From Rhodospirillaceae bacterium (GTDB lineage: Bacteria; Pseudomonadota; Alphaproteobacteria; Rhodospirillales; Rhodospirillaceae), in NCBI GenBank assembly GCA_963678075.2, contig CAXXPK010000005.1:148764-212763 (forward strand): a stretch of DNA of 64,000 nucleotides, read 5' to 3'. The position numbers and the translations under genes were made by a program. The notes beneath the pieces are model-generated. The model was not told the DNA's origin. It worked only from the letters and a program-made list of their open reading frames with translations, and did not search any database. Below are positions 22,726 to 59,689 of this stretch, in pieces; position 1 is the stretch's first letter; every line of letters begins with the position of its first letter.

Positions 22726-22733
22726 TCCGGTTC

Positions 22734-25949: not shown

Positions 25950-26283
25950 GGCGTCGGCCAGGACCAGCCGCCCCTCGGCGTCGGTATCAGACGATTTCGA
26001 CGGTGCTGCCGTCGAAACCCCGCGCCACGTCGCCGGGGATCGGCCTGCCGCCGCCGTCGCGACCGCGCCCAGGAAGCCGCAACCCGGCACCGGCCCGTCC
26101 GTCGTGGGGGCAAGGGCGCAGGCCGGAGTTCCGTCGATGCTCAGCGTCTTCGTCAGCCGCTTCCAGTTCGGCCGCAGTGGGTGGCTGCCGGGGCGGACCC
26201 CGGTGATCCAGGCATCAGCGGCGCCGAGGGGAATGTCCCCCCCCACGGCGTCCGGTCGTCGCGGTCGGCGAAGCGCAGGCGGA
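25950..26283 (-). pseudogene. Remnant of a second M17 leucyl aminopeptidase gene directly downstream of pepA
   Basis: DTDAEGRLVLADA (25950-25988) is the M17 NTDAEGRL signature. One frame over, just upstream, is GRPIPGDVARGFDGSTVEIV followed by a stop (compare pepA RPGDVVASMSGQTIEVINTDAEGRL). By eye the DNA is only about 70 percent identical to pepA. Confidence 0.65.
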
Positions 26284-27801
26284 TCATCGATCGGCCTTCG
26301 GCGCGGGTTGTGCCTCGTAGCGGGTGGCGATCAGGCGTTCCAGCAGGCGGACCCCGAAGCCCGAGGCGCCCTTCGGCGCGGTCGGCAGCGCCTTTTTCAT
26401 CCAGGCGACGCCCGCGATGTCCAGGTGCGCCCAGGCGACGTCGGGCTTGATGAAACGCTTCAGGAACTGCGCGGCGGAGATCGAACCGGCCTCGCGTCCG
26501 CCGGTGTTTTTCATGTCGGCGATGTCGGACTTGATCAGTTCGTCATAGGCGTCGCCCATCGGCAGCCGCCACAGCGCCTCGCCGACCTCGGCCCCGGCTT
26601 CGGTCAGCGCCGTGCTCAAGGCGTCGTCGTTGGAGAGCAACCCGGCGTGGTCGGACCCCAGGGCGATGACGATTGCCCCGGTCAGGGTGGCCAGATCGAT
26701 CACCTCCCTTGGCTGGAAGGTTTCCTGCGCGTACCATAGGGCGTCGGCCAGGACCAAGCGGCCCTCGGCATCGGTGTTGATCACTTCGATGGTCTGTCCC
26801 GACATCGAGGCCACCACGTCGCCGGGGCGCTGCGCCATGCCCGAGGGCATGTTCTCGACCAGGCCCAGGATGCCGACCACGTTCACCTTGGCCTTGCGGC
26901 GCGCCAGAATGCGCATCAGCCCGGTGGTGACCGCCGCGCCGCTCATGTCGGTTTTCATTTCCTCCATGCCGGCGGCGGGTTTAATCGAGATGCCGCCGGA
27001 GTCGAAGCACACCCCCTTGCCGACGATGGCGACCGGCGCGTCGCCCTTGGCGCCGCCCATCCAGCGCAGGACCACCAGTTGCGATTCGCGGTCCGACCCC
27101 TGGCCGACCGCCAACAGCGACTCCATGCCCAGCTTCGCCATTTCCTTTTCGCCCAGGATCTCGACCTCGACGCCGTCCTTTTCCAGGCCCTTGGCGATCT
27201 TCGCGAAGGCGGCGGGGAATAGCACGTTGGCGGGCTCGGAAACCAGATCGCGGGTCAAGAAGACGCCGTCGGCGACGATCGCCAGGGGCGCCCAGGCGTC
27301 CTTGGCCGCCTTTTCGTCGGCGACCGCGAGGGTCAGGGTCTTCAGGGCGGTTTTGTCCTCGGGCTTCTGTTTGGTGCGGTAGGTGTCGAAGCGATAGGAC
27401 TTCAGCTTCGCCCCCAGCGCCGCATGGGCGGCCTGCCGGGCGGTCGAGGCCTTGGACTCGGCGATGGCGTCGATGGCCAGGGTCAGTTCCGTGCTTTTGC
27501 CCTTGTCCGCCGCGATCATCGCCGCGCCGCCGAAGGCTTCCATGCGGCGGCAATCGATCTCCGCCGCCTTGCCCAGGCCGACCAGGATCAACTGGTCGAT
27601 GGCGAGCCCGGCGGGGGCGACGATCGCCAGCGTCTGCTCGGCCTTGCCGGTGAAGCGCGATGTCGCGATGGCGCGGGCGACGGCGCCGACGGTGGCAACA
27701 TCGGCCGCCTTGGCGCTGGGGGTGAGGACGCCGGCTTCCAGGACGCCAACGGCAAGGCACCCGGATTTCGGAAAACCGGGCTGAGCGAAAGCGACTTTCA
27801 T
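26284..27801 (-). CDS. pepA: Leucyl aminopeptidase (M17)
   Basis: 505 aa. Motifs VGKGVCFDSGGISIKP, NTDAEGRLVLADA, ATLTGA. Confidence 0.95.
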   Translation of the reverse strand: MKVAFAQPGFPKSGCLAVGVLEAGVLTPSAKAADVATVGAVARAIATSRFTGKAEQTLAIVAPAGLAIDQLILVGLGKAAEIDCRRMEAFGGAAMIAADKGKSTELTLAIDAIAESKASTARQAAHAALGAKLKSYRFDTYRTKQKPEDKTALKTLTLAVADEKAAKDAWAPLAIVADGVFLTRDLVSEPANVLFPAAFAKIAKGLEKDGVEVEILGEKEMAKLGMESLLAVGQGSDRESQLVVLRWMGGAKGDAPVAIVGKGVCFDSGGISIKPAAGMEEMKTDMSGAAVTTGLMRILARRKAKVNVVGILGLVENMPSGMAQRPGDVVASMSGQTIEVINTDAEGRLVLADALWYAQETFQPREVIDLATLTGAIVIALGSDHAGLLSNDDALSTALTEAGAEVGEALWRLPMGDAYDELIKSDIADMKNTGGREAGSISAAQFLKRFIKPDVAWAHLDIAGVAWMKKALPTAPKGASGFGVRLLERLIATRYEAQPAPKADR

Positions 27802-32912: not shown

Positions 32913-33531
32913 CTAGGTGCGGTTGGTGGCGCCGATCTTACGGAAGACGTTGCGCAGGTGCGATTTGAATAGTGATCTCGGTCAGCCCCAGGATCTTGGC
33001 GATTTCCTTGTTGGAGGCACCGCCCACCAGTTGCGTCAGGATTTCGTATTCGCGCTGGGTCAGCACCGACAGCGGCGACCGCTCGTGCGGCAGCGCGGAT
33101 GACGGTTCACCCCCCATTCGCGGTTCGGTGGCCTCGGCGGTCAGCACTTCCGGCGGGTAATAGGGAACGCCGCACAGGATCAGACGCAGGGCATGCATCA
33201 TCGCGGTGCCGTTCAACGACTTCGGCAAGTATCCGGAAACGCCCAGTCGCATGGCTTCCAGGACATTGCCGCGCGTTACCCAGTCGGTGACGATGACGAT
33301 GCGGCAATCGGGGGAGGCGCGGCGCAAACGCAGCACGCCGTCGATGCCGTCCATTCCGGGCATTTTAAGATCCAGCAAGACCAAATCCGGTCGTTCCGCC
33401 GCCATGATTTCATGTGTCGAAGGGTAGTCAAAGGATTCGAGGATGTTCACATCATCGGCGACTTTGGAGACGAAAGGTTTCAGGCCGTCCCGCAATAGCG
33501 CATGATCATCGGCGATCAAGACTTTCATCAT
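32913..33531 (-). pseudogene. NarL/FixJ-type response regulator (REC and LuxR HTH) with a frameshift and an amber codon in the HTH
   Basis: MMKVLIADDHALLRDGL..DLVLLDLKMPGMDG..LTQREYEILTQLVGGASNKEIAKILGLTEITI is intact. The expected KSHLRNVFRKIGATNRT is in the -1 frame (extra T near 32966-32972). It runs into TAG at 32913-32915, where NRTQAVALALREGV is expected. Confidence 0.8.
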
Positions 33532-33673: not shown

Positions 33674-34093
33674 TCATGCCAGCGATCGTAGGGTTTTGGC
33701 AAGTTCGCGCAGGGATACCGGTTTGCGCAGGATGACGTCGGCGCCGTTTTCCACCTCCGCCAGCGCGATGCGGTCGTGCAGGGGTTGTCCGGTGATGACG
33801 ATGGTGGCGATGTGCGGGTGCTCGGCGGCGACCTCGGCGATCAGTTGAAAGCCGTCGCCGTCGGGCATCTGAAGATCGGTGATCAGAATATCGATGTGGT
33901 GTCGCAACAGGTGGTCGCGGGCCTTCCGGCCGCTGACGGCGGTCAGAACGACGTATCCGGTCCTCTTCAGAAAGGCGGCGAGTTCACCGACGGCCAGGGT
34001 TTCGTCATCGACCACCAGGATGGATAACGGGTCCGTTGACGGTTGCAGCGGTTCGGTGGTTGTGGTGTTTCCTCGCTCAGGTTCAGGCCCCAT
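33674..34093 (-). CDS. Single-domain CheY-like response regulator; 5' end abuts or is replaced by the IS copy A terminus
   Basis: LSILVVDDETLAVGELAAFL..IDILITDLQMPDGDGF..VILRKPVSLRELA. The only in-frame ATG (34093) lies inside the IS terminal repeat (..CCCCATTAA on the plus strand). Confidence 0.6.
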   Translation of the reverse strand: MGPEPERGNTTTTEPLQPSTDPLSILVVDDETLAVGELAAFLKRTGYVVLTAVSGRKARDHLLRHHIDILITDLQMPDGDGFQLIAEVAAEHPHIATIVITGQPLHDRIALAEVENGADVILRKPVSLRELAKTLRSLA

Positions 34094-34622
34094 TAAATTA
34101 TTGTCAGGCAGATCGGCGGCTGATTCCCTCATGGGAGGGAGGACCCCATCCATGAGTGATCTGTTTTGGTTGTCAGAGAGGCAGCTGGCGAAGATTGAGC
34201 CGCATTTCCCGCTATCGCATGGCGTGCCGCAGGTTGATGATCGATGCAACCCACCTGAAAGCTCATCGGACCGCCGCGAGCCTCCATAAAAAGGGGCTCT
34301 TCCCCGATGTATCGGACGCACAAAAGGCGGGCTGAACTCCAAGCTTCATGCGGTTTGCGACGGACAAGGAAGGCCCCTCATCCTGCTGCTCAGCGAAGGA
34401 TCGCTACATGCATCCCGCCAATGCGTCATCGCAAAACCCAGCACGCTTACGACAAAATCCTCTATCGCCAGCGTCATAGGATCGAGAACCTCTTCGCTCG
34501 CCTCAAGGATTGGCGGCGTATCCAGACCCGATATGACCAATGCGCGGATATCTTCTTTGCCGCCGTCATCATCGCGGTACTCCTCCTCTTCTGGATCGAA
34601 CCTTAATGGGTCCTGAGCCTAG
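34076..34622 (+). mobile_element. IS copy A: internally deleted derivative of the IS5-family (IS427-like) element
   Basis: It has the same termini and ORF sequence as copies B and C. It lacks 185 bp between two GGTTGATGATCG repeats (junction 34232-34243) and 121 bp between two CAGCGAGGG repeats (junction ~34391-34399). Confidence 0.9.
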
Positions 34623-38420: not shown

Positions 38421-38957
38421 TTACTTCGGCATCGAGCCGAGCTTGACGCCGTCCGGATAGTATTCCCACCCGTCGCGGATTTTGATCTTGGCGTCCCACG
38501 GCAGCTTGTACTTGCCCTCGGCCAGGTCGCGCACCCAGGTCAGGTAATTGGCGTGTTCGCCACCCGGCTTGCCGACATAGGCACGGCAGCCCAGGTTGAA
38601 AATGTTGTTTTCCAGCGCCCAATTTTCGCGGGCCTTATCGACCAGACGCGGGAACAGCTCGGCGGTGACGCTTTCCCACGGATTGCGGTGGCCCTGCTGG
38701 ATGACGTTGCCGTCGTAATTGCAGATCGTGCCCTCGCTGAAGTAATAGAACACCTCGTCATAGCTGGCCAGGTTGACGGCCAGGGTGTACATCAGGTCCA
38801 GACCGGGATATCCAGCCTTGGTGTTGTCGATGGTTCTGCAGATTTGATCGACCTGAACCTTGATGTCCTCTGGGGCGTGAATGACCGGCACCGGATATTG
38901 AATCAATGCGGTCAGCAAAGATTTTTCCCAAGAGCTTACACTTCCAGTGCTGCCCAT
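38421..38957 (-). pseudogene. amiF: Formamidase AmiF (nitrilase superfamily) with the catalytic core deleted in frame
   Basis: [30 protein letters not shown] is joined directly to [47 protein letters not shown]. Compared with Helicobacter AmiF (from memory), about 170 central residues are absent, including the Glu-Lys-Cys triad. Confidence 0.8.
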
Positions 38958-38971
38958 GTCGGATGCTCCGT

Positions 38972-39825
38972 CTAGGCTCAGGACCCATTAAATTATTGTC
39001 AGGCAGATCGGCGGCTGATTCACTCATGGGAGGGAGGACCCCATCCATGAGTGATCTGTTTTGGTTGTCAGAGAGGCAGTTGGCGAAGATCGAGCCGCAT
39101 TTCCCGCTATCGCATGGCGTGCTGCGGGTTGATGATCGGCGAGTGATCAGCGGCATCGTTCATGTGATCCGCAACGGCTTACGGTGGCGAGATGCACCAC
39201 CCGTCTATGGCCCCCACAAAACCCTCTATAATCGTTTCGTTTGCTGGAGCCGACTTGGGGTGTTCAGCCGGATCTTCGCGGCCTTGACGGGAGAGGCTGG
39301 CCCTCCAGACCGGTTGATGATCGATGCAACCCACCTGAAAGCTCATCGGACCGCCGCGAGCCTCTATAAAAAGGGGCTCTTCCCCGATGTATCGGACGCA
39401 CAAAAGGCGGGCTGAACTCCAAGCTTCATGCGATTTGCGACGAACAAGGAAGGCCCCTCATCCTGCTGCTCAGCGAGGGGTAAATGAGCGATTACAAAGG
39501 CGCGATGCTGTTGCTCGACCTATTTCCCAAGGCCAACGTCCTGATCGCCGACAAGGGCTATGACGGTGATCCCCTTCGAGAGGCTTTGACACAGCGAGGG
39601 ATCGCTACATGCATCCCGCCAATGCGTCATCGCAAAACCCAGTACGCTTACGACAAAACCCTCTATCGCCAGCGTCATAGGATCGAGAACCTCTTCGCTC
39701 GCCTCAAGGATTGGCGGCGTATCCACACCCGATATGACCGATGCGCGGATATCTTCTTTGCCGCCGTCATCATCGCGGTACTCCTCCTCTTCTGGATCGA
39801 ACCTTAATGAGTCCTGGGCCTGGAG
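38972..39825 (+). mobile_element. IS copy B: IS5-family (IS427-like) element, full length but mutated
   Basis: Left end CTAGGCTCAGGACCCATTAA. The right end TTAATGAGTCCTGGGCCTGG has two changes from copy C. About 10 substitutions separate it from copy C, all transitions by eye. Confidence 0.9.
39047..39807 (+). pseudogene. IS copy B transposase (orfA, -1 frameshift, orfB) with an ochre codon
   Basis: orfA is MSDLFWLSERQLAKIEPHF..IDATHLKAHRTAASLYKK. The A5G slip site is at 39368-39373. orfB is GALPRCIGRTKGGLNSKLH..SEG, then TAA (39481-39483) where copy C has CAA, then MSDYKGA..ADKGYD..RHRIENLFARLKDWR. Confidence 0.85.
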
Positions 39826-39996
39826 TGTTTCACAAAGCAAGGCCCCCAAAAACACTTAAACAGGAGAGGCTATAGACCTCGTGACCCCAATGCCGTGTCC
39901 TGATGAGCGCCTTGAACAGGGAACATCCTCTTGGATGCACACCGCATTCTGAATACGTGGTTTAGCGTAGACTCCACCGAGCCCTTCCTTTCGTCC

Positions 39997-40908
39997 TCAA
40001 TGTTCGCCCGGCGCCCGCATCGCGCAGGCGGCGGTGGTCCGGTTTTCCACCCCCAGCTTGGTGTAGATTTGTTCCAGGTGCTTATCGACGGTGCGCGGGC
40101 TCAACCCCAGGATCGCCGCGATGTCGCGGTTGGCCTTGCCGTGGGCCAGCCACAGCAGGACCTAGGATTCGCGGGCGGTCAGCTTCAGCCGATGGCGCAG
40201 GACGTCTTCGTCTCGCGCCATGGCGCCTTCGCACAAACGCAGCAGAAATTCGTTCTCTCCCACGCGCCCGACATAGGATGCACGCAGCTGCATGCCGGCG
40301 GGCGTTTCCGGCAGGGCGACCATCGCCCCGTCGGACTGTCCTTCCCCGACGATCCGCCGCAACACCGTTTCCACCGCATCCGGCAAGATCAAGCCGTCGT
40401 TCCCCGATGGAAAGGCCAGGGCCAAGCGTTCGTTCGCCTGTGGTGTCGCCCAGCGCGGATGCCCGTCGCGATCGACCGCCAGCAAATAGCGACCGGTGGC
40501 ATCCAGCGCCATGCGCGCGCTGCGGGTCATGCGCGCATTCGCCAGATGCACGCGAATCCGCGCCAACAGTTCCTGGGTGACGATCGGCTTGGTGACGTAA
40601 TCGACGCCTCCGGCCTCGAACCCCTGCACCACGTGCTCGGTCTTGCTTAGCCCCGTCATGAACACCACCGGCACGTCGGACATTTGCGGCAGCATCTTGA
40701 TTTGACGGCAGGTTTCGAACCCATCCATTTCCGGCATCACCGCATCCATCAAGACGATGTCCGGGGTGATCCGTTCCGCCGAGGCCAACGCCTGCCGTCC
40801 GTCCAAGGCCACCAGAACGGTCAGGCCCTCGCCCTCCAGGGCGTCGGTCAGCATGCTCAACGAACCCGGCATGTCGTCAACCACCAGCACGATGTCGCGC
40901 GATTTCAC
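39997..40908 (-). pseudogene. Response regulator (REC, linker domain, LuxR HTH) interrupted by an amber codon
   Basis: IVLVVDDMPGSLSML..IVLMDAVMPEMDGF runs to LKLTARES, then TAG (40162-40164), then in the same frame VLLWLAHGKANRDIAAILGLSPRTVDKHLEQIYTKLGVENRT. Confidence 0.85.
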
Positions 40909-43726
40909 GATGCGGTCTCCTCGTTCAACAGGAGCTCCAAAGTCACCCCAAGAGCCTTCAAATCGAAATCATCCGTCAACTTGCGCAGGCGTTTGACGGT
41001 TTGGCCGCAAGCGGGGGTCTCGCGGTCGATGCTGTCCAGTTTGGCGCGAATTCCCCGGACATAGCCGATGTCCACCAACGCGCGCAGTTCCTGCAAGTCA
41101 CCGTGAGCAGGGCAAGGGCCAAAGGATGTGGGCGCTGGCGGATCTTCTTCCTCCGCCGTCCAGTCCAGGCCGAGGTGTAGCCCGATTTTCTCCAGCAGTA
41201 CGGTGATTTCGAACGGCTTGACCACGAAATCGTCGAACGCATCGCCGGGGTGATTGCCGGGGCGGTATTCCTGCGCATTGGCGGAAACCATGATGATCGG
41301 TTCGGCGGGGAAGCCTTGTTCTCGCAGCTGTTTCGCGACCTCCCAGCCATTGCGATCCGGCATCGAGATATCCAACAAGAACAAATCCGGTCGGAGCCGC
41401 CGCGCCAGGGAAAGGCAGATTTCTCCGTCTGGAGCGCAGAGCATGCGAAACCCCAGCGGAGACAGCACTTCGCGCAGCAACGACAGGTGGGTGGGGTCGT
41501 CGTCGGCGGCCAACACCGTCAGCCGCCGTCCGCGATAGCCGGTGATGCGCGATGGTGAAAGTCGCGCCGCCTCGGGGTTGATGGTTTCCGACAGCATCAG
41601 GCAGACCCGGAAACGACTGCCCTTGCCGACCTCGCTGACCACCGAAATCTTGCCGCCCAGAATCTCGGTCAGCAGTTTGGTGATGGTCAGCCCCAGGCCC
41701 ATGCCGGTGACCGCGTGGTTGCGTGCTTGCCGCCCGCGTTCGAAGGGTTCGAAGACCCGGTTGATGTCCTCCGGTCCGATACCGATGCCGGTGTCCGCGA
41801 TGTCGAATTCGACCAACTGACTGCTGCGATAGCGGACGGTGAAGGTAATTCCGCCGGTGTCGGTGAATTTCAGGGCGTTGGACAGCAGATTGATCAGAAT
41901 TTGGCGCAGACGCTTGACGTCCGCGTGAACCACGGCGGGCAGTTCTGTCCGATACGGTGTATTCGAAATCGATGCCTTTTTCCCGCGCCTGCAATCGGAA
42001 CATGCCGACGATCTGATCCAGGAATTCCGGGAAGCGGACGTCCTCGATGTTCAAATGCAGGTGTCCGGCCTCGATTTTCGAGATGTCGAGCAAGCCTTCG
42101 ATCAGCCCGGAAAGATGTTCGGAACTGCGGCGAATGACGCCGACGGCGTTGCCGTATTTCCCAGGGAAAGCGGGGTCTCCCTCCAACAGTTGGGCGTATC
42201 CGAAAATTGCGTTCAACGGTGCCCGCAGCTCGTGGCTGATGCCGACGACATAGCGGGTCTTGGCCAGGTTGGCGGCCTCCGCCACTTCCTTGGCTTTCTG
42301 CAATTTCTCGTCGGTCAGTTTGTGGGCTTCGATCTCTTCCATCAACAGGGCGGTCTGGCGCTGGGTTTCCTCTTCCGCCACCCGGTGGCTTTCCCGCGCC
42401 AGGACCAAAAGCCAGGCAACCACGCCGGTGACGATGACCACCGCAGCGAAGACCTTCAGCAGGACGCCGACCAACACATCCTGGGGAATGCCGGAATGCA
42501 TGGCGGTCTGGAAATAGATCAAATACAGCACCGCCGCGATCACCGAGACCGAAAGCATCACCGTGACGACGAATCCCAAAATCGTGGCCGAGGTCTTTTC
42601 CATGATGCTTTCCGGCACCCGCGCCCAGCGCAGAAGGCTGCGCATCTGATCGGACAGGCGGGCGTTTTCCTTGCAGCCGTCATGGCAGCGGGCGTCCAGG
42701 GAACAGCACAGCGAACAGATGTGTCCGCCGTAGGCAGGGCAATACGCCATGTCTTCCGGTTCGAATTCGTATTCGCAAATGCAGCAGCGCACCAAGTCGT
42801 GTCCATCCGTCGGCATCGCCACCGGTGGACGCGCCAGATAATAGCGGCCGCGCGTTCGCGGTGGCGATCAACGGGGCCATGATCAGCGCGACCCCCAGGG
42901 CCAGAAAAACCGCGAAGCCGCGCGCCGTGTCGCCGAACGTGCCGATATGCGCCAGCGTCGCGGCCACCGTGGAGACCGCCATGCTGCCCAAGCCGACCGG
43001 ATTGATGTCGTACAGATAGGCGCGCCGGAATTCGATTCCGGCGGGGCTGAGGCCCAAGGGCTTGTTGATGACCAGATCAGCGAAGATGATTCCCAGCCAC
43101 GATGTGGCCAGAATCGAAAACAGGGTCAGGATCGGTTCCAGCCCTTCGTAGATGCCGAATTCCATCAACAGCAGGGAAATTCCCACGTTGAAGACCAGCC
43201 AGACGACGCGGCCGGGGGGGCTGTGGGTCAGCCGGGAAAAATTCGACCAGGCGATCGACCCGGCATAGGCATTGGTCACGTTGATCTTCACCTGGGCCAG
43301 GACGATGAACGCCCCGACCGCCAGCATCGCCACGGTCGGCCATGGGAATACCAGACCGAACGCCACCAGATACATGTGCGCGGGGTCTCCGGCCTGTTCG
43401 ATTTGCACGCCGCTGTTGTAGGCCAGGACCGCCAAAAACGGACCCCACCAGCAGCTTGAAACCACCCATGATGCCCAGCGATGCGGCCAGATAGCCGATT
43501 CCGGTTGGAAGCCCGAACAACAGGTTCAGCGCGGCGGCCAGGATCACCGCTTCCAGGGCGAAGAAGATTAAGGTGAACGAGGCATAGATCAAGGAGGTAA
43601 TGGTCGAGCCGATGTAACCGAACCCCGCGCAGCCGTGAAGCGCAGGGCGTAATCTTCCAAGGTTTGGTTCGCGACCCACTGATTGTATTGGCGGCGCACG
43701 CGCACGATGCGTTGTTGAATCGTCAT
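40905..43726 (-). pseudogene. Hybrid sensor histidine kinase with an N-terminal NCS1-like permease domain and a Cys-rich linker, multiply frameshifted
   Basis: Segments in different frames are:
- MTIQQRIVRVRRQYNQWVANQTLEDYALRFTA (from ATG 43726)
- AGFGYIGSTITSLIYASF.. (ORF 43077..43679)
- ..QVKINVTNAYAGSIAWSNF.. (ORF 42680..43465)
- RGRYYLARPPVAMPTDGHDLVRCCICEYE..GISHELRAPLNAIFGYAQLL..FEYTVSDR (ORF 41098..42822)
- LPAVVHADVKRLRQILINLLSNALKFT..DTGIGI..GMGLGL, then REC and an Hpt-like tail (ORF 40905..41933). Confidence 0.85.
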
Positions 43727-44122
43727 CGTGCGCCTTTCCCCATCGGCGAAATGTTACCGGAATCGGTCGGGACAGGGGTCGTCATCGTGAGCGGGGCAGG
43801 GTCAAAGCGCATGCTGTTGTCCTCATGAACCCCTCCCGATGATGTTTTCTTGGCCTGCCGAGATCGGCTCTTTCCCGGCATGCATTTCCCAGGCCGCTTT
43901 CAATCACGGCATGAACGCTCCGCGAACAACGCGAAGGCTGCGCGCGCCCGGATCGAACTGGAAAAGATTAGCGTCAATGGAATTCTGGCGAGATACGGAG
44001 AAATACGTATACGACAAACCGCGTATTTTGAATGTCTTGGCATTCTCCGACGATCCGGGGGAAAGACGGTGCCTCGTCACCGGTTTTCCGTGCTCCCGCC
44101 CTCCACGATCGAAGGAGAAGAC

Positions 44123-45347
44123 ATGATGGACCACCACGCCACGGGTTCGCGCCCGTCGAAAACCTGAAAGAACCTACTGGGGGCCGCCCTGGCCGGTCCG
44201 GCGCTGCCGACCGCTACGGTCAACGGCACCGGCCTTGCCGTCACCGACGACACGGTCACGGTGGGGATTCTGCACTCCGTCACCGGCACCATGGCGATTT
44301 CGGAAACCGGCTCGGTACAGGCGGAAAAGCTTGCGATCGAACAGATCAACGCCAAGGGCGGCATCCTGGGCCGCAAGGTGCAATTCATTCAGGAAGACGG
44401 CGGTAGCGATTGGCCGACCTTTGCCGAGAAGTCCAAGAAGTTGCTGGAAAAGGATAAGGTCGCGGCGGTGTTCGGCTGCTGAACCTCGGCCTCGCGCAAG
44501 GCGGTCTTGCCGGTGTTCGAAAAGGACAACGGTCTGCTTTATTACCCGACCTTTTATGAGGGATTGAAATAATCCCCCAACGTCTATTACACCGGCCAGG
44601 AAGCGACGCAGCAGATTCTTGCCGGTATCGACTGGGGGGTCAAGGAGAAGGGCGCCAAGACCTTCTACCTGCTGGGCTCGGACTATATCTGGCCGCGCAC
44701 CTCGAACAAGATCGCCTGCAAGCACATCGAGAAGAACGGCCTGAAGGTGGTCGGCGAGGAATACTTCCCGCTGGGACACATGCAGTTCAACTCGGTGATC
44801 AACAAGATCAAGCTGAAGAAGCCGGATGTGATCTACGCGATCATCGTCGGCGGCAGCAACGTCGCCTTTTACAAGCAGTTGAAGGCGACGGGCATTGATT
44901 TGACCAAGCAGACCCTGCTGACAATTTCGGTGACCGAGGATGAAATCCGCGGCATCGGCGGCGAGAACATCACCGGCGCCTATGCCGCGATGAAGTGTTT
45001 CCAGTCTCTGGCTAACCCCAACAACAAGGCCTTCGTCGAGGCCTTCAAGGCCAAATGGGGCAAGGACATCGTGATCGGCGACGTCACCCAGGCGGCCTAT
45101 CTGGGGCCCTGGTTGTGGAAGGCCGCGGTGGAAAAGGCCGGCAGCTTCGACGTCGATAAGGTGCGTGCCGCCTCGACCGGAATTGAGCTTCAACACCGCG
45201 CCGGAAGGCCATGTCCGCATCCACAAGAACCATCACCTGTGGAGCAAGACCCGCATCGGTCGCGCCAAGGCCGATGGTCAGTACGAGCTCATCTACGAGA
45301 CCAAGGACCTGATGGAGCCCGATCCCTTCCCCAAGGGCTACCAATAA
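44123..45347 (+). pseudogene. urtA: Urea/short-chain amide ABC transporter substrate-binding protein (UrtA/FmdD-like) with three stops and a frameshift
   Basis: RBS GAAGGAGAAG, then ATG at 44123. In-frame TGA at 44165. [23 protein letters not shown], then TGA at 44480 (family has FGCW), then TSASRKAVLPVFE..YEGLK, then TAA at 44570, then SPNVYYTG..LLGSDYIWPRT. An extra C at 45188 precedes FNTAPEGHVRIHKNHHLW. Confidence 0.88.
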
Positions 45348-45579
45348 CCGCATCCGGGTGGGGGCGGAAAACCGCCTCCGCCTTTAGCAGGGTGCGGAAA
45401 AACCATTGGACGGCTGCACTCGGGGTCTTTTCGTCAAGTCTGCGTCGCTTTTTCGCAAGATAATCCCGCTATCTTGCTTCAAACGTTACTGGTCTTGCCG
45501 AAAACCTCCTATCGTTCACTCGCCCAAGCCTTTTTCCGCGCCCTGTTAGCTCTTCAACGCGCCATCAGGGAGTTTCCCC

Positions 45580-46257
45580 ATGTTCGACGGTTACACGGCG
45601 TCCGAACTTGTTTCGATCCTCGCGATGCAGGGTTTCGCGGGTCTGATCCTGTTTTCGGTGTTTCTGCTCATGGCCGCATCCTCCCGCGTTATTCCCAACC
45701 GTTTGACCTATCTGATGGGAACGCGCCCCGAGCGCGTCGCCCTGCTGGCGTTCGCCGTGCTGATCCTGGTGGCCTTCCCCCTGGCGATGGACAGCTTCCG
45801 CCTGAACATCTTCGGCAAGTACATGACCTATGCCTTCGTCGCCGTCGGCCTGGTCCTGTGCTGGGGGATGAGCGGCATTCTGTCGCTGGGCCAGGGCGTG
45901 TTCTTCGGCCTGGGCGGGCACTGCATGGCGATGTTCCTGAAGTTGGAAGCCCCCGACCCGGTCAGCACCTCTATCCAATCGACGCTGGGCATTCCCGACT
46001 TCATGGACTGGAACCAACTGACCGCCTTGTCCTGGTTCTGGCAGCCCTTTCATAGCCTGACCTTCACCATCGTGGCGGTGGTCGTGGTGCCGACGGTCTT
46101 CGCCTTCGTCCTGGGGACCGCCTTGTTCATCGGCGTGGTGTCGGTCTTCCCCCTGGAATTGGCCGGGCTTTACGAACAGCACGTTCGTCCCCGCCTGAAG
46201 CAACTGTCCTGCTTCAAAAAGCCGCTCGCGGCGCTGTCCCCCACCCCCGGAGCATGA
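45580..46257 (+). pseudogene. urtB-urtC deletion chimera (about 30 codons of UrtB, then the front half and tail of UrtC)
   Basis: MFDGYTASELVSILAMQGFAGLILFSVFLLMA (UrtB N-terminus) is joined to ..FRLNIFGKYMTYAFVAVGLVLCWGMSGILSLGQGVFFGLGG..DFMDWN..WFWQPF (UrtC front). That is joined to VSVFPLELAGLY (UrtC-like tail). The total is 225 aa, versus roughly 900 aa expected for the two permeases. Confidence 0.75.
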
Positions 46258-46264
46258 GGCGGCC

Positions 46265-47008
46265 ATGACCAACACCAATTTCGTTCTGGCGGTCGAGGAT
46301 CTGACCGTTTCCTTCGACGGCTTCCGCGCGGTCGATGAGCTGAGCTTTTACGTCGATAGTAATGAATTGCGGGTCGGCATCGGCCCCAACGGCGCGGGCA
46401 AGACCACCGTGCTCGACCTGATCTGCGGCAAGACCAGGGCGACCGGCGGCTCCATCAAGCTCAAGGGCCAGGAACTGACCCAAATGTCGGAGCACGAAAT
46501 CGTCCGCGCCGGGGTCGGGCGGAAATTTCAGACACCGTCGATCTACGAGGACCTGACGGTGTTCGAGAATCTGGAGGTTTCCCTGCCGCGCGGGCGCTCG
46601 GTCCTGGGGGCCTTGGCCTTCCGCCGCGACGCCGACGTGGTGGCGCGGATCGAACGGATCGCCGAGGAGATTTTCCTGGCCGACCACCTGGATCAGCGGG
46701 CGGCGGTCCTCAGCCATGGCCAGAAGCAATGGCTGGAAATCGGCATGCTGCTGATCCAAGAGCCGGAACTGCTGATGCTGGACGAACCGGTAGCGGGAAT
46801 GAGCCTCAGCGAACGGGAAAAGACCGCCGAACTGCTGAAGCGCATCACCTCCGGACGTTCGGTGATCGTGATCGAGCACGACATGCGGTTCGTCAAGCAC
46901 ATCGCTCAGAAGGTCACGGTCCTGCACCAAGGCAAGATCCTGTCCGAGGGTTCCCTGACCAAGGTGCAAAACGATCCACGCGTCATCGAGGTCTATCTTG
47001 GACATTGA
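46265..47008 (+). CDS. urtD: Urea ABC transporter ATP-binding protein UrtD (reads intact)
   Basis: 247 aa. Motifs GPNGAGKTT, GRKFQTPSIYEDLTVFENLE, LSHGQKQWLEIGMLL, LMLDEPVAGM, VIEHDM. Confidence 0.88.
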   Translation: MTNTNFVLAVEDLTVSFDGFRAVDELSFYVDSNELRVGIGPNGAGKTTVLDLICGKTRATGGSIKLKGQELTQMSEHEIVRAGVGRKFQTPSIYEDLTVFENLEVSLPRGRSVLGALAFRRDADVVARIERIAEEIFLADHLDQRAAVLSHGQKQWLEIGMLLIQEPELLMLDEPVAGMSLSEREKTAELLKRITSGRSVIVIEHDMRFVKHIAQKVTVLHQGKILSEGSLTKVQNDPRVIEVYLGH

Positions 47009-47024
47009 GGAAAGGACAGACGCC

Positions 47025-47402
47025 ATGCTTCAGGTCAACGCCCTGTCCGTCGCCTACGGGGAAAGCGACGTCCTGCACGGAGTCGGGTTCTCGGCCGCCG
47101 AGGGCGAGATCGTCGCCATTATGGGACGCAACGGCATGGGGAAAAGCACCCTGATGAAGTCGCTGATCGGCATGATTCCCCATCGCGGCGGCACCATCCA
47201 CCTGGGCGGCGCCGATCTGTCCGCCCTGCCCAGCCACAAACGGGTGGAAAATGGGCTGACCATCGTTGTCTCGGAACGGGTCTTGACCTTCGCCATGAAC
47301 GTGGCCGACCGTTTTCTGGTCATGGAAAACGGCCAGTTCGTCGATGAAGTCACGGCGGCGGAAACCGACGAGGGCCGGGTCGCCGCGTTTCTGTCGGTCT
47401 AG
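47025..47402 (+). pseudogene. urtE: UrtE ATPase with an in-frame internal deletion
   Basis: MLQVNALSVAYGESDVL..GRNGMGKSTL..HKRVENG is joined to LTIVVSERVLTFAMNVADRFLVMENG. The Q-loop, LSGG signature and Walker B are absent (125 aa versus about 230 expected). Confidence 0.75.
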
Positions 47403-47431: not shown

Positions 47432-48109
47432 CTATTCCTGCGCCGCCATCGGGTCGATGTCGCTGGGGGCGTGGCCGAGGTTGCGGAACATCGCCGTGAC
47501 CTTGTCCATGGCCGCGTCCAGGTCGGCGCGGTCGGTGGAGCGGCCGACGATGCAGGTGCCGATGCGTTCTCCCAGTCCGAAGGGATAGCTGCCGATATCG
47601 ACGCCGGGGCGGGTCTTCTGGATCGCGGCCAGGGGTTCGGCGATGTTGCCTTCCCGCGCCTCGGCGGTGACCGCGCGCGACAGCACCGCCGGTCCGCCGC
47701 CTAAGGTATGGGCGATGCCGTCGAACATTGCTTGCATGATGCGCGGCACCCCGGCCATGCGTAAGCGGGCGGGGTTGAGGGTCTCGCCGTAATAGGCGCC
47801 GAGCAGACGCTCGGCGTCCGGGGGGCGGACCAGCGGCACACCGAAGGCGGCGGCGATGCTGGCGGCGGTGATGTCGTCGTGGGTGGGGCCGATGCCGCCG
47901 GTGGTGAAGACATAGGTGAACCGTTCGCGGGCGGCGTTGACGGTGGCGACGATGTCCTCGGTCAGGTCGGGGATGACGTGCGCCTCCCGCACCGGAATGC
48001 CGATCTTGGCCAGCGCCTTGCCGAGGTAGGGAAGGTTTTCGTCCTTGATCCGGCCGGAGAGGATTTCATTGCCGATGACGATGACGCAGGCGGTGGATTG
48101 AACGGTCAT
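47432..48109 (-). CDS. CinA-like molybdopterin-binding (MoCF_biosynth) domain protein, shorter than family norm
   Basis: Motifs VIVIGNEILSGRIKDEN and FTTGGIGPTHDDIT. RLRMA is followed at once by GVPRIMQAMFDG; remembered homologs carry about 27 residues between them. Confidence 0.8.
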   Translation of the reverse strand: MTVQSTACVIVIGNEILSGRIKDENLPYLGKALAKIGIPVREAHVIPDLTEDIVATVNAARERFTYVFTTGGIGPTHDDITAASIAAAFGVPLVRPPDAERLLGAYYGETLNPARLRMAGVPRIMQAMFDGIAHTLGGGPAVLSRAVTAEAREGNIAEPLAAIQKTRPGVDIGSYPFGLGERIGTCIVGRSTDRADLDAAMDKVTAMFRNLGHAPSDIDPMAAQE

Positions 48110-50950: not shown

Positions 50951-51889
50951 TCACTTGATGGTGTCGCGTCGCTGTGGGCGCGACGGCGTCGCTTCCGAGG
51001 CTCGCACCGCGATCGGCACCGCGATGTCAGCGACGAACTGGGCGATGCCGGGTTCCGCTTGGCGTTCCTGTCGTGGATTACCGCGCACCACCATCACCGC
51101 GCCGCGGTCGGAGTCGTTGCGCGCGCCGTCCTGATTGATGTCGGGCAGGGCCGAGGCCCGGGCCGCCTGTCGGTCGGCCTAGGCAGCGGCGTCCTGTGGC
51201 GACAGCCGTCCCGAGAAACGGTCAAGGGCACTGGCGCCGTTCGTACCCGTGGTGGTGGCGGCGCCGGAACCGGTGAAGAACAGGCCACTGTTGACCGCCG
51301 ACAAGTCGATGGCATTGCCCGCCGCGTCGGTTCCCAGACTGCCCGGGTCCGACAAAAGCGCGCCGACCGGGTCGGAGGCGGCGCCGTATTCCAGCGAGGC
51401 GGAGCCGAAATCGACCGAAACGTCGTCCGGGCTTTCCACGTCTTCCTTGATCGCCATCTTCACTTCCATCTGGCGGACAATGAAGTTGAGCTCTTGGCGG
51501 ACCTGGGTGTCGATGGCCGGCGGCTCGACGGTTCCGGCCAGTCGCCGGACCTCATTACGCAGAACCTCGATCACCTTGTGACCGGAGATGTTGGTCTGGG
51601 TGTTGTTGAGGCCATAGACCGACATCAGGCGGTTCAGCCTGGTCGTCACCTCGGAGATGGTGTCGTCGGCGGACGACGCGACCGCCTGCTGGAAACGAGA
51701 GAGCGAATCGCCGGTTTCCAGGGCGGCTCCCGCCATCAATTCCTGGGCGGCATCGGACAATACGACATTGTCACCGGGGAACACCGCTTGCGGCGTTTGC
51801 GCGGCGGCGCCGGCATGAGCCTGCAAAACCCGAGCCTGGGTTCACTCGGTGATTTCCTGGGCGCGTAGCGAAGTCGTGACATCGGACAT
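50951..51889 (-). pseudogene. Unknown 313-codon gene with a strong RBS, interrupted by TGA and TAG
   Basis: AGGAGGAAACC, then ATG at 51889. [15 protein letters not shown], then TGA (51842-51844), then TQARVLQAHAG..RLSPQDAAA, then TAG (51179-51181), then ADRQAARASALPDINQDGARNDSD.. to TGA at 50951. All segments are in one frame. Confidence 0.6.
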
Positions 51890-52183
51890 GGTTTCCTCCT
51901 TCTGGGAGCGCATCCATCCACATACGCGGCGTGGTCATCAGGCCACGCCGATCACAAATCTCTCATTCTGAGAGCATTCGCTAATTCTAAAGTACCAGAG
52001 GTCTTCCAGCAAGAGAGAAGGACTCATCGCTTGGTCCGGCACGGCGCTTCGATTGACAGGGGGCGCATCGGGCTCTACATCTTTTGCCGCGTGGTGCCGC
52101 TGCGAAGGGGCGCCCAGGTGTTTTCATCCGATGCGGTGCCGGGGGTTTGTCGGGCGCCGTGCCGCCAAAAACCGGGGTTTTCG

Positions 52184-54808
52184 ATGTTCGGTGCCATAGC
52201 TAGGCGCGTTTTCGGCAGTGCCAATGATCGAATCGTCAAGGGCATGAAAAAGACGGTCATGGCGATCAACGCGCTGGAGCCGGAGGTCGTGACTCTGGAC
52301 GACGCGGGCTTGCGCGCCCGCACCGACGCCTTCCGCGCGCGTCTTGCTGCGGGCGAAAGCCTCGACTCCTTGCTTCCCGAGGCCTTCGCCACGGTGCGTG
52401 AGGCGGCCAAGCGCACCCTCGGCCAGCGTCACTTCGACGTCCAACTGATGGGCGGTATCGTGCTGCATCAGGGCCGCATCACCGAAATGAAGACCGGCGA
52501 AGGCAAGACCCTGGTCGCCACCCTGGCGGTGTATCTGAACGCGCTGACCGGCAAGGGCGTTCACGTGGTCACCGTCAACGACTACCTCGCCAAGCGCGAT
52601 GCCGCCTGGATGGGGCAAGTTTACGAGTTCCTGGGGCTGACGGTGGGGTGCATCGTGCATGGCCTGGATGACGAGGAACGCCGCGTCGCCTATGCCGCCG
52701 ACGTCACCTACGGCACCAACAACGAGTTTGGTTTCGACTATCTGCGCGACAACATGAAGTTCGGCCTGGAAGAGATGACCCAGCGTCCCTTCAATTTCGC
52801 CATCGTCGATGAAGTGGACTCGATCCTGGTTGACGAGGCGCGGACGCCGTTGATTATCTCCGGTCCCGCCGAGGATTCGTCCGAGATGTATGTCAAGGCC
52901 GATGCCCTCATTCCGGCGCTGGCCCCCGAACACTTCGAAAAAGACGAAAAGCAGCGCGCAGTGACCCTGACCGACGACGGCGTCGAGTTCATCGAGGCGA
53001 TGCTGCGCGAAACCGGCGAGATCGCCGAGGGTGGCAGCCTTTACGATATCGAGCACGTCAGCCTGGTGCATCACGTCAACCAGGCGCTTCGCGCGCACAA
53101 GCTGTTCGCTCGCGACACCGACTATATCGTCAAGGACAACCAGGTCATCATCATCGACGAATTCACCGGTCGCATGATGGAAGGCCGTCGCTATTCCGAA
53201 GGTCTGCATCAGGCTCTTGAAGCCAAGGAAAAGGTGAAGATCCAGAAGGAAAACCAGACGCTGGCCTCGGTTACCTTCCAAAATTATTTCCGTTTGTACC
53301 CGAAGGTGGCCGGGATGACCGGTACCGCCCAGACCGAGGCGCAGGAATTCGAGGAAATCTATCGCCTGTCGGTGGTCGAGATTCCGACCAACATGCCGGT
53401 GACGCGCAAGGACTTCGACGACGAGGTCTATCGCAGCGCGCGCGAGAAGTTCGAGGCGATTTTGTTGCTGATCGAGGACTGCCACAAACGTGGCCAGCCG
53501 ATTCTGGTCGGCACCACCTCGATCGAGAAGTCGGAAATGCTGGCCGACATGCTGCGCAAGAAGGGACGGATCGAGCTGCGGGTGTTGAACGCGCGCTATC
53601 ACGAGCAGGAAGCCTTCATCATCGCCCAGGCCGGGGTGCCCGGCGCGGTGACCATCGCCACCAACATGGCGGGTCGCGGTACCGACATCCAATTGGGTGG
53701 AAACGTCGATATGCGGGTCGCCGCCGAACTGGCCGAGATCGCCGATCCCGCCGCCCATGCCGCGCGCGAGGCCGAAATCCGGGCCGAGGTCGAAGTCCTG
53801 CGGCAGCAGGCGCTGGCGGCGGGTGGCTTGTACGTGGTCGGCACCGAACGCCATGAAAGCCGCCGTATCGACAACCAATTGCGCGGCCGTTCCGGTCGCC
53901 AGGGCGACCCCGGCGCGTCGAAGTTCTTCCTGTCGTTGGAAGACGATCTGATGCGGATTTTCGGCTCCGAACGCATGGACGGCATGCTGCAGAAGCTGGG
54001 CCTGCAGGAAGGCGAGGCGATCACCCACCCCTGGATCAACAAGGCCCTGGAAAAGGCGCAGCAGAAGGTCGAGGTGCGCAACTTCGAAATCCGCAAGAAC
54101 CTGCTGCGCTTCGACGACGTCATGAACGATCAGCGCAAGGCGATCTATGGCCAGCGCCGCGATCTGATGTTGGCCGAGGACGTGGCCGAGATGGTCGCCG
54201 ACATGCGCCACGAGGTGATCGAGGACTTCGTCATCGCGCGCATCCCCGAACGCGTCATGCCCGAGCAGTGGGACGCCGAGGGTCTGGCCCAGGACGTCCG
54301 CCGGGTGATGGGGCGCGATTTGCTGATCTCCGACTGGGCGGCCGAGGAAGGCATCACCGACAAGGAAATCCTGGACCGTTTGCTGCGCGAAGGCGACCGC
54401 CTGATGGCGGAAAAGGCCGCCAACTTCGGCCCGGCGACGATGCGGGTGATCGAAAAGTCCCTGGTCCTGCAAATCCTCGACCAGACATGGAAGGAACATC
54501 TGCTGGGGCTTGACCACTTGCGTCAGGGAATCGGTTTGCGCGCCTATGGCCAGCGCGATCCCTTGAACGAATACAAGCAGGAAGCCTTCGATATGTTCCA
54601 GAGGATGCTGGCGCTTTACCGCGAGCGGGTGACCACCATGCTCTGCCGCATCGAACTGCGCTTCGACGACGAGCCGTCGGCCCCGGCCCCGGCGGCGGCC
54701 GAAGCGGTCGATCCGGCCGATCCCTCGACCTGGGGGCGGGTGCAGCGCAACGCGCCGTGTCCCTGCGGTTCGGGCAAGAAGTACAAGCACTGCCACGGCA
54801 AGATGTAA
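52184..54808 (+). CDS. secA: Preprotein translocase ATPase SecA
   Basis: 874 aa from [16 protein letters not shown] (ATG 52184 inside ORF 52031..54808). Motifs [24 protein letters not shown]. The C-terminal zinc motif is [14 protein letters not shown]. Confidence 0.97.
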
Positions 54809-54829
54809 GCGACGGCGGCGGGGGGGGGC

Positions 54830-55515
54830 GGCGGCTGCGCGATATCGCTGCTGCCGCGCAGGTAGGTCTCGATGTCGTCGCGGATAACCCGCAACTGGGC
54901 GACAGTGGTGCGGTATTCGACGCCGATCGTCCAGTTGATGCGGCGGCAGGTCATTTGCGTGAAGTTGGTCACCGCGTGGTCGGAAAGGGCGGTGTTCGGC
55001 ACATAGACCGGCGCCTTGTCGAAGCGCCGGATCAGGGTGGATCGGAAGCCGATGGTTTCCACCACGCCCTCCACCACGCCATCGACGCGCACCCAGTCGC
55101 CGGGGTTGAAGCGTTTCTCGGCGATGGATTAGCCGGCCGGAGATCAGGTTCTTGAACAGGTCCTGCGCGCCCGGCGCGACGGCGACGCCGAATAGGCTGA
55201 AACCGGCCAGGATCGGCCCCACCTTGACCCCCCACAGGTCCAGGATAGTGGCGGCGCCGATCGTCATGATCAGCAGCTTGACCGCCTTGATCGTCCAGGT
55301 CATCAGCGACACCGAAAAGATGTGCTGCAGCCGGTTGAAGACGAAAGATAGCGGTTCGACCAGGACGTAAAGGAACCAGAACAGGTCGAAGACCACGAGC
55401 GACCGGACGACCGTCATGTGAATGGCGGCGATGTCCTTGGAGAAATGCATGTGTTGCCCGGCCAACAGCAGGCCGATGATGAAGGGGATCGTCCGCACCG
55501 GGCCGCGCAGGGCCT
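54830..55515 (-). pseudogene. MscS-family mechanosensitive channel fragment, truncated at both ends and frameshifted
   Basis: ..GPILAGFSLFGVAVAPGAQDLFKNLISG (frame of ORF 52124..55498) shifts near 55125-55140. It continues as SIAEKRFNPGDWVRVDGVVEGVVETIGFRSTLIRRFDKAPVYVPNTAL (ORF 54616..55092). The 5' end is cut by IS copy C. The 3' end stops at a G9 run (54820-54828) just after secA. Confidence 0.75.
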
Positions 55516-56367
55516 CTAGGCTCAGGACCCATTAAATTATTGTCAGGCAGATCGGCGGCTGATTCACTCATGGGAGGGAGGACCCCATCCATGAGTGATC
55601 TGTTTTGGTTGTCAGAGAGGCAGTTGGCGAAGATCGAGCCGCATTTCCCGCTATCGCATGGCGTGCTGCGGGTTGATGATCGGCGAGTGATCAGCGGCAT
55701 CGTTCATGTGATCCGCAACGGCTTACGGTGGCGAGATGCACCACCCGTCTATGGCCCCCACAAAACCCTCTATAATCGTTTCGTTCGCTGGAGCCGACTT
55801 GGGGCGTTCAGCCGGATCTTCGCGGCCTTGACGGGAGAGGCTGGCCCTCCAGACCGGTTGATGATCGATGCAACCCACCTGAAAGCTCATCGGACCGCCG
55901 CGAGCCTCTATAAAAAGGGGCTCTTCCCCGATGTATCGGACGCACAAAAGGCGGGCTGAACTCCAAGCTTCATGCGGTTTGCGACGGACAAGGAAGGCCC
56001 CTCATCCTGCTGCTCAGCGAGGGGCAAATGAGCGATTACAAAGGCGCGATGCTGTTGCTCGACCTATTTCCCAAGGCCAACGTCCTGATCGCCGACAAGG
56101 GCTATGACGGTGATCCCCTTCGAGAGGCTTTGACACAGCGAGGGATCGCTACATGCATCCCGCCAATGCGTCATCGCAAAACCCAGTACGCTTACGACAA
56201 AACCCTCTATCGCCAGCGTCATAGGATCGAGAACCTCTTCGCTCGCCTCAAGGATTGGCGGCATATCCACACCCGATATGACCGATGTACGGATATCTTC
56301 TTTGCCGCCGTCATCATCGCGGTACTCCTCCTCTTCTGGATCGAACCTTAATGAGTCCTGAGCCTAG
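55516..56367 (+). mobile_element. IS copy C: apparently intact IS5-family (IS427-like) element
   Basis: CTAG, then GCTCAGGACCCATTAA.. at the left; ..TTAATGAGTCCTGAGC, then CTAG at the right. The ~20-bp imperfect terminal inverted repeats are bracketed by CTAG on both sides. The two-ORF transposase has no internal stop. Confidence 0.92.
55591..56351 (+). CDS. IS5-family transposase, orfA-orfB joined by a predicted -1 ribosomal frameshift
   Basis: orfA runs 55591..55959 (MSDLFWLSERQL..). The A5G motif is at 55912-55917. The -1 frame reads KKGALPRCIGRTKGGLNSKLHAVCDGQGRPL..SEGQMSDYKGA..ADKGYD..YRQRHRIENLFARLKDWR and ends at 56351. DDE residues are present. Confidence 0.85.
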
Positions 56368-59482: not shown

Positions 59483-59595
59483 GATCTTGCTATTAAGGTA
59501 CGCCGCGCCGCGAAGTCCAGGGGAAAACCAGGGGAGGCGAAATAGGGAAAACCCTTGCGAGGGGCCATGGACCCCTCGCGCTCCGCACCATGGTT

Positions 59596-59674
59596 CCATG
59601 GCGCTTCGCGCGAAAACCAAAATGAAGGGTACACAGGGGCCGGGACCCTGTGCGGGGTTCGGGGCGGAGTCCTG
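59596..59674 (+). repeat. Third copy of the structured intergenic repeat seen at 22545-22725
   Basis: CATGGCGCTTCGCGCGAAAACCAAAATGAAGGGTACACAGGGGCCGGGACCCTGTGCGGGGTTCGGGGCGGAGTCCTG is near-identical in its first ~45 nt and last ~25 nt to 22647-22725. Confidence 0.8.
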
Positions 59675-59689
59675 ACTTGGTTTTTCCCG

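Follow-up and report, generated by a model that had tools for sequence, protein, structure and literature searches.

In Methylophilus methylotrophus, the fmdA/fmdDEF genes link a Urt-like importer to a formamidase. Comparative studies of Urt-like transporters encoded beside formamidase or amidase genes infer that these systems import short amides, instead of or besides urea, and formamide, acetamide or urea are the substrates predicted for the Urt-type importers that adjoin short-chain amidases (PMC3098086; PMC13209695). Among the described clusters, Bradyrhizobium blr0968–0973 places a five-gene importer of this type next to a short-chain amidase gene (PMC3098086), and the amiE-fmdA-fmdB-urtABCDE cluster of Pseudomonas veronii places one beside amidase genes (PMC13209695). 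Here we analyse a locus of similar content at positions 38421–47402 of a 64,000-nucleotide stretch of DNA (the window) from Rhodospirillaceae bacterium contig CAXXPK010000005.1, in which pieces of eight genes and one insertion sequence (IS) are recognizable. We consider this region to be most probably (at a probability of roughly 0.85) a unitary pseudogene cluster, that is, a once functional amide (formamide-type) utilization island that is now inactive and decaying neutrally. It also departs from the described Urt-linked clusters in its enzyme and its order: whereas those carry a formamidase or amidase of the FmdA/AmdA family (PF03069) or AmiE downstream of urtE, the window has an AmiF of the nitrilase superfamily downstream of a regulator gene, in a cluster that appears to be dead.

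Intact counterparts were recovered from metagenomes. Among the contig matches listed in a scan seeded with the window UrtD, the best identity was 79%, and the architecture of these matches was informative; a later protein search yielded UrtD relatives at 90–91% identity, and the contig of one of them (JGI 3300027985, Ga0259481_10000045; also in NCBI) is used throughout as the intact reference locus, L163. Its gene order is amiF, response regulator and hybrid sensor kinase on the minus strand and then the divergent urtABCDE on the plus strand, all intact and spanning 10,695 bp. The second intact metagenomic locus, L089 (Ga0316197_10002994), likewise has amiF, regulator and kinase on one strand and urtABCDE divergent from them, an arrangement identical to that of the window. 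Positions 38421–47402 are collinear with L163 at the DNA level, with 78–90% identity, and because this collinearity includes the spacer between the regulator and amiF and the divergent region between the kinase and urtA, the window locus must have descended from a complete locus of the L163 type. Amino-acid identity to L163 is 90% for UrtD, 93% for the AmiF C terminus, 86% for UrtA and 80% for the regulator. Compared with L163, the window lacks 2,779 bp and has gained an 846-bp IS, a 165-bp spacer segment and eight point-type lesions, and the lengths approximately balance (subtracting the deletions from 10,695 bp and adding the IS and the spacer segment gives about the 8,982 bp of the window locus). 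The two loci differ in genomic neighbourhood and in their G+C content at third codon positions (GC3), which is 0.88–0.94 in L163 and 0.76–0.87 in the window.

Further intact loci were fetched with the window UrtD and used for blastx: L002 (Ancylobacter), L026 (Bradyrhizobium), L005 (Aurantimonas) and L006 (Methylobacterium). Against these, the order of regulator and kinase on the minus strand and urtA–E on the plus strand is conserved; the window kinase appears as five successive frames, urtA as two, and urtB is missing. The urt remnants, which retain the order urtA-B-C-D-E on one strand, are collinear with L163, L002 and L089. The enzyme that follows urtE in L001, L002 and L026 is an FmdA-type formamidase (NF045496), not AmiF, and the regulator–kinase pair upstream is kept. 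When metagenomes were scanned with the AmiF remnant, AmiF was very often linked to this two-component system and urt cluster. The AmiF arrangement is one of two enzyme variants of the locus type, the FmdA-type variant being found in many related loci. Our literature search found nothing specific on the regulator pair of the amide locus.

Relative to L163, the window locus carries 16 disabling lesions: seven deletions (471, 223, 330, 36, 840, 567 and 312 bp), four +1 frameshifts (three in the kinase gene and one in urtA), four nonsense codons (TGG>TGA twice, GAA>TAA and GAG>TAG, with the ancestral codons read from L163) and one clean insertion of an IS5-family element. The only intact gene of the cluster is urtD. 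An initial annotation, made from the sequence alone, had described a complete amide locus that is non-functional and bears several classes of mutation after loss of selection; the architecture of L163 and L089 and the accelerated, AT-biased change on the window branch (see below) bear this out. Each lesion that it listed was confirmed by mapping onto intact orthologues, by blastx and by alignment with L163, either exactly at the position that it gave or only a few bases away. It had overlooked two, an in-frame deletion of 330 bp in the kinase gene and another of 36 bp in the signal-peptide region of urtA. Multiple independent lesions in genes with intact orthologues elsewhere (16 against the intact L163) are what neutral decay is expected to leave. 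Rfam and tRNA scans returned only two tRNAs, both outside the locus.

The amiF remnant (38421..38957, minus strand) is a 178-amino-acid open reading frame (ORF) that retains its start and stop codons and that has suffered the 471-bp deletion in frame, with the junction at 38791–38797; the two ends had been recognized before as joined without the catalytic core, which the comparison with L163 upholds. Residues 1–55 align to residues 1–55 of AmiF and residues 54–168 to residues 211–326 (PDB codes: 5G3O and 2DYU). The likeness to the Helicobacter pylori and Bacillus cereus enzymes (PDB codes: 2DYU, 2E2K and 5G3O) is limited to the N-terminal 55 and the C-terminal approximately 120 residues; these enzymes have residues ~56–212, which the remnant lacks. 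The same residues are absent by comparison with L089, L085 and L163, and the region of the CICHDG cysteine is gone from the alignment. The deleted segment carries the Glu–Lys–Cys catalytic residues (residue numbering of the H. pylori structure). The short AmiF reaches 238.6 bits with the NF009803 model, whose cutoff is 406, and matches it only at the N terminus and at profile positions 210–330; a Pfam scan of it gave no CN_hydrolase match. The missing segment corresponds to positions 1132–1602 of L163, where the 7-bp repeat ATCAGGT stands at both breakpoints; a related 7-bp repeat, ATCTGAT, stands at the same breakpoints in L085. Among 5.8 billion protein clusters, no other protein spans the amiF junction of the window, that is, the identical short form was not found elsewhere, and an exact look-up of the window UrtD and the short AmiF in public assemblies returned no match.

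Another in-frame truncation of AmiF occurs on a marine metagenome contig (L084, positions 2279–2890, 2.6× coverage), in which approximately 12 N-terminal residues are joined just before the catalytic cysteine motif. We attribute it either to decay that happened independently or to faulty assembly. We considered a shared ‘short AmiF’ family and rejected it: the L084 truncation has a different junction and only this low coverage, and no protein spans the junction of the window.

The spacer between the regulator and amiF is occupied by the IS noted there previously, an 846-bp IS5-family element (copy B; 38975..39820, plus strand) inserted 17 bp ahead of the amiF start codon; in L163, the sequence runs through the insertion site without a break (positions 1777/1781). 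The element is bounded by the inverted repeats GGCTCAGGAC...GTCCTGAGCC, and its transposase is split over two ORFs with an A-rich slippery site. At the DNA level, it matches plasmid copies that bear the annotation ‘IS5 family transposase’ at 75%, and these features together mark it as a member of that family. Copy B is approximately 99% identical to copy C (55519–56364), which is flanked by TA within CTAG; the transposase gene of copy B is interrupted at 39481 by a CAA>TAA nonsense codon. Three copies occur in the 64 kb, and copies A and B are damaged.

Both regulatory genes are disabled. The response regulator pseudogene of the LuxR/GerE type (39997..40908, minus strand) aligns to the L163 regulator over residues 3–305 and is broken by a single GAG>TAG change at 40162–40164. 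This amber codon, placed by the initial annotation just before the helix–turn–helix (HTH), lies within LTARE(S)E, a motif in the opening part of the GerE/LuxR HTH, where L163 has GAG; the REC domain is found, and the GerE region lies behind the stop. The hybrid sensor kinase pseudogene (40905..43726, minus strand) is read by blastx against L002 and L163 as five frame segments. It has +1 insertions at 41943, ~42853 and ~43440, the 330-bp in-frame deletion at 43468–43470 and a 223-bp deletion at 43624–43633, directly after ...ALRFTA; of these, only the 330-bp deletion had escaped the first reading. In its intact form, the protein has a large membrane domain at the N terminus, along with a Cys-rich motif and the domains HisKA, HATPase and REC. 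Through four frame changes and two deletions, the HisKA, HATPase_c and REC domains of the window kinase are spread over separate ORFs instead of sharing one.

The kinase family itself has an unusual sensor region. In the members from L002 (2579–6019, minus strand), L163 (2856–6233, minus strand) and the window (42857–43726), an N-terminal multi-pass membrane region of approximately 500 residues is followed by the Cys-rich motif CCICE...CPxYxGxICSLCCSLDARCHD. The N-terminal 620 residues of the L002 kinase have no match in Pfam and no sequence match in the PDB, and their membrane character is evident from the sequence. The initial annotation had taken this region for a permease domain, a homology that these searches did not show. 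As judged from these sequences, the N terminus appears to be an uncharacterized sensor module that is widespread beside amide transporters.

On the plus strand, the pseudogene of the UrtA/FmdD-type periplasmic amide- or urea-binding protein (urtA; 44123..45347) contains three nonsense codons, TGG>TGA at 44165, TGG>TGA at 44480 and GAA>TAA at 44570, as well as a +1 insertion at 45188/9, all of which had been seen before, and the newly found 36-bp in-frame deletion at ~44189. Its fragments score 118.8 and 191.8 bits with TIGR03407, for which the cutoff is 492.75. Because the TGA of the FGC-TGA motif occupies the place of a conserved tryptophan, translation of TGA as Trp (code 4) was considered and rejected: most of the intact genes here end in a genuine TGA, their commonest stop, and the remaining stops are TAA and TAG at Glu codons. 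Downstream of urtA, the urtA–urtB spacer (45350–45514) contains 165 bp that are absent from L163, of lower GC content, with a GGCGG...CCGCC hairpin followed by a T run; no second copy of this segment occurs elsewhere in the window.

The adjoining ORF (45580..46257, plus strand) is a fusion of urtB and urtC. Through an 840-bp deletion at 45674–45683, UrtB codons 1–32 are joined in frame to UrtC codon 2, and urtC has a further in-frame loss of 567 bp at 46105–46128; the previous estimate of about 30 urtB codons fused to pieces of urtC agrees with this. The junctions show the microhomologies ATG.C and CTGTTC. The UrtC fragment scores 142.7 bits with TIGR03408 (cutoff 296.2) and covers profile positions 1–111 of 313; the TIGRFAM scan gave no UrtB match, only 32 codons remaining. 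The ABC ATPase gene urtD (46265..47008, plus strand) scores 374.5 bits with TIGR03411 against a cutoff of 304.1, and its product shows no mismatch at 79–108 highly conserved columns. It had been singled out as the one gene that reads intact, and it is the only one of the five subunits that passes its TIGRFAM model; no five-subunit importer survives. The urtE remnant (47025..47402, plus strand) aligns to L163 UrtE residues 1–95 and 177–229, was also aligned to L002, and yields only a partial Pfam ABC_tran match; its 312-bp in-frame deletion at 47248–47256 removes the Q-loop, ABC signature and Walker B, as had been reported.

To place these lesions in their genomic setting, the window was compared with its closest host relative, L081/L082 (75% identity in CinA and 87% in SecA; the nearest named CinA, that of Oleispirillum naphthae, is 67% identical). 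The flanking genes bioM, bioN, bioY, nudix, argJ, the peptidyl-prolyl isomerase (PPIase) gene and secA, which together make up ~7.4 kb, align end to end with L081 and contain no stop or frameshift. There are 16 lesions in ~8 kb of island against none in ~7.4 kb of flanking housekeeping genes, and chance is excluded as the cause of this clustering. Substitutions tell a similar story. A three-taxon comparison of the window, L163 and an outgroup (L165/L166/L085) assigned 609 unique changes to the window branch and 438 to the L163 branch (p=1e-7), with GC>AT and AT>GC changes in a ratio of 328:82 on the former (a 4:1 bias) and 122:109 on the latter. Nonsynonymous changes in amiF, urtA, urtC and urtE number 72 in the window against 37 in L163 (p=8e-4). 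In alignment columns whose conservation reaches 95% or more across 55–110 orthologues, the window proteins mismatch at 8 of 129 positions in AmiF, 6 of 112 in UrtA and 6 of 60 in UrtC, far above the orthologues.

Several results weigh against a neutral decay of the island. The regulator, kinase and urtD show no excess of nonsynonymous changes (150 against 144), and their conserved columns show no excess of mismatches either (0/49 in the regulator, 0/79 in UrtD and an ordinary 5/194 in the kinase); Fisher’s test of 0/128 against 21/324 gives p=0.001. The raw ratio of nonsynonymous to synonymous changes on the window branch is 0.57, far below the neutral value; selection therefore acted along most of that branch, the dead period being short relative to the divergence from L163. 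Loss of constraint in the regulator, kinase and urtD genes is either recent or, for urtD, unproven. Part of the GC>AT excess could come from a transferred high-GC island adjusting to the base composition of its host (amelioration), and the single-base insertions are known from the assembled sequence.

If the stops, single-base insertions and deletions were errors of sequencing, consensus or assembly, the true locus would be intact; the four frameshifts of the island and one in a mscS-type gene nearby are all +1, mostly copying the adjacent base, which is an error type of some long-read chemistries. Errors would be expected at random, however, yet the ~7.4 kb of adjacent essential genes carry none, and every frameshift sits in a gene that has independent stops or deletions too. 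Nor does sequencing error make repeat-bounded deletions of 36–840 bp, nonsense substitutions or a clean IS insertion, and it does not produce a 4:1 GC>AT bias or, in certain genes only, an excess of changes of conserved residues. We regard this explanation as highly improbable, and the lesions look real because the clean flanks, repeat-bounded deletions, AT-biased substitution and conserved-column changes are patterns that error does not yield. Real lesions need not mean dead genes, and some remnants might have kept or gained a function (UrtD as an orphan ATPase, a REC-only regulator, or the short AmiF, UrtB–C or UrtE), which would explain their open reading frames. In favour of this are the intact urtD with no mismatch at conserved columns, the equally unblemished regulator (0/49) and the fact that seven of the eight coding deletions, that of cinA (see below) counted, are in frame (p=0.0026 against the expected 1/3). 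The bias towards in-frame deletions is nevertheless mechanically expected. Direct repeats flank the deletions in amiF (7 bp), cinA (7 bp) and IS copy A (12 and ~9 bp), and 3–12-bp repeats, some of them imperfect, flank the other junctions of the island. When we surveyed direct repeats 30–1000 bp apart in the intact L163 genes and the window housekeeping genes, the fraction in the same codon phase was 65% at 5 bp, 79% at 7 bp and 91–95% at 9–10 bp. Because a GC3 of 0.8–0.9 imposes a three-base periodicity, a deletion between direct repeats is in frame approximately three-quarters of the time; with repeats mostly in phase, the in-frame joins are therefore no evidence of surviving function. The short AmiF, moreover, lacks the whole catalytic core, and signature and Walker B are both missing from the short UrtE; the junctions of the window are spanned by no other sequence (the AmiF junction of L084 being a different one), and the stops and frameshifts of the upstream urtA should lower expression of the genes downstream. 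The escape of urtD may well be chance: if 15 hits fell on ~10.7 kb, a gene of 744 bp would be spared with a probability of ~0.4. We consider retained or new function very unlikely.

A wider question is whether the decay is specific to the island, which might have been acquired horizontally, never needed, and left to rot in an otherwise healthy genome, a view implicit in the initial annotation with its single pathway that lost selection. In L081/L082, bioY and cinA are convergent and 535 bp apart with no island between them, and no island remnants were found in that spacer; the L163 island stands in a different genomic context; and the GC content of the window island is 0.57–0.63 against ~0.66 in its flanks. 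The island was either acquired horizontally or cleanly lost in L081, and its lower GC content fits either AT-biased decay or amelioration. A horizontal origin is compatible with the decay of a once functional cluster; only the ‘otherwise healthy genome’ is contradicted, by the same classes of lesion in genes outside the island, one of them syntenic with L081. The cinA-like gene (47432..48109, minus strand) has an 84-bp in-frame deletion that leaves a 225-amino-acid ORF open; 28 residues are missing relative to six relatives, and the corresponding segment is flanked in L081 by the 7-bp direct repeat ATGGCCG. Between the PPIase gene and secA, a hypothetical gene (50960..51925, minus strand; 66% identity to L081_6237_7199) is interrupted by two in-frame nonsense codons at positions that encode Arg and Gln in L081. 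The 5′ end of the mscS-type channel gene (54805..55519, minus strand) is cut by IS5 copy C, a +1 insertion (C) lies near 55110, and its 3′ end has been deleted together with the small downstream ORF and methyltransferase gene of L081, up to the secA stop codon. On the other side of the island, a second REC–GerE (LuxR-type) regulator (32938..33531, minus strand) has a frameshift and a stop within its HTH, and a lone REC domain (33689–34021, minus strand) abuts IS5 copy A (34080–34619), which has internal deletions of 185 and 121 bp between its 12-bp and ~9-bp direct repeats. With two of the three IS copies degraded as well, decay restricted to the island is unlikely, and the claim that the island is a rare snapshot of a whole pathway after loss of selection was overstated.

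For the amide cluster as a decaying pseudogene locus, we propose the following course. In the ancestral island, one strand would have carried amiF and the genes of the sensor kinase and LuxR-type regulator, with the genes of a UrtABCDE/FmdDEF-like ABC importer transcribed divergently from them. Selection for amide scavenging would then have been lost in a lineage that was shedding non-essential sensing and transport genes generally, with expansion of IS5 elements. Deletions may have arisen by slipped-strand or illegitimate recombination between direct repeats of 3–12 bp, the +1 insertions by single-base slippage and the nonsense codons by G/C>A/T point mutation. The importer and enzyme genes would have been released from constraint first, the regulators disabled later and urtD not yet hit; the transporter and enzyme genes probably did lose constraint before the regulator, kinase and urtD. 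We expect no amide transport or hydrolysis from this locus.

The decay is ordinary and unusually well documented, in a dead copy of a known, computationally predicted locus type, and it leaves the current understanding of pseudogene evolution unchanged. What it offers is a referenced record of how a high-GC operon decays, in which direct-repeat deletions dominate the loss of DNA, point lesions run from G/C to A/T and an IS inserts. It also illustrates that selection is not required for a truncated gene to stay in frame, given that most short repeats of codon-periodic DNA share the same phase. There is also a practical consequence: automated annotation would probably call the 178-amino-acid ‘formamidase’, the UrtB–C fusion, the short UrtE and the 225-amino-acid CinA normal genes, implying a capacity for amide or urea uptake that is almost certainly absent.

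Genomes rich in pseudogenes and IS elements, at an early stage of reductive evolution, are known from Mycobacterium leprae, Sodalis glossinidius, Bordetella pertussis and Burkholderia mallei. Non-essential genes for sensing, transport and catabolism are hit in them by nonsense mutations, frameshifts, direct-repeat deletions and IS elements, substitution is AT-biased and housekeeping genes stay intact. The window shares this pattern, here over 64 kb only, and hints that the source organism is shedding genes for environmental response. Decay beyond the island is what would typically be seen where selection on a lineage has relaxed or its effective population size is small. We tentatively suggest, with rather less than even confidence, a Rhodospirillales-like lineage in early reductive evolution, with a bloom of IS5 elements and loss of sensing, transport and scavenging, in which the island would still reveal the sequence of gene losses, importer and enzyme first and regulators and urtD last, and in which direct-repeat deletion in GC3-rich genes would yield mostly in-frame ‘mini-ORFs’ that annotation software would call genes. 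Tempering this suggestion, genome-wide decay would be extrapolated from a single 64-kb window.

Two further features lie outside the locus. An intergenic repeat of ~100 bp occurs at 22635–22735 and 59585–59685 with 80% identity between the copies, and it matches part of the bioY–cinA spacer of L081 (10766–11299); it may be an element of this lineage that resembles repetitive extragenic palindromic sequences or miniature inverted-repeat transposable elements. The ORF at 25479–26330 (minus strand) matches TauE/SafE only over its C-terminal 60% (profile positions 93–237 of 237), with a weak 28-residue Peptidase_M17 match upstream, and may be another truncated or fused gene.

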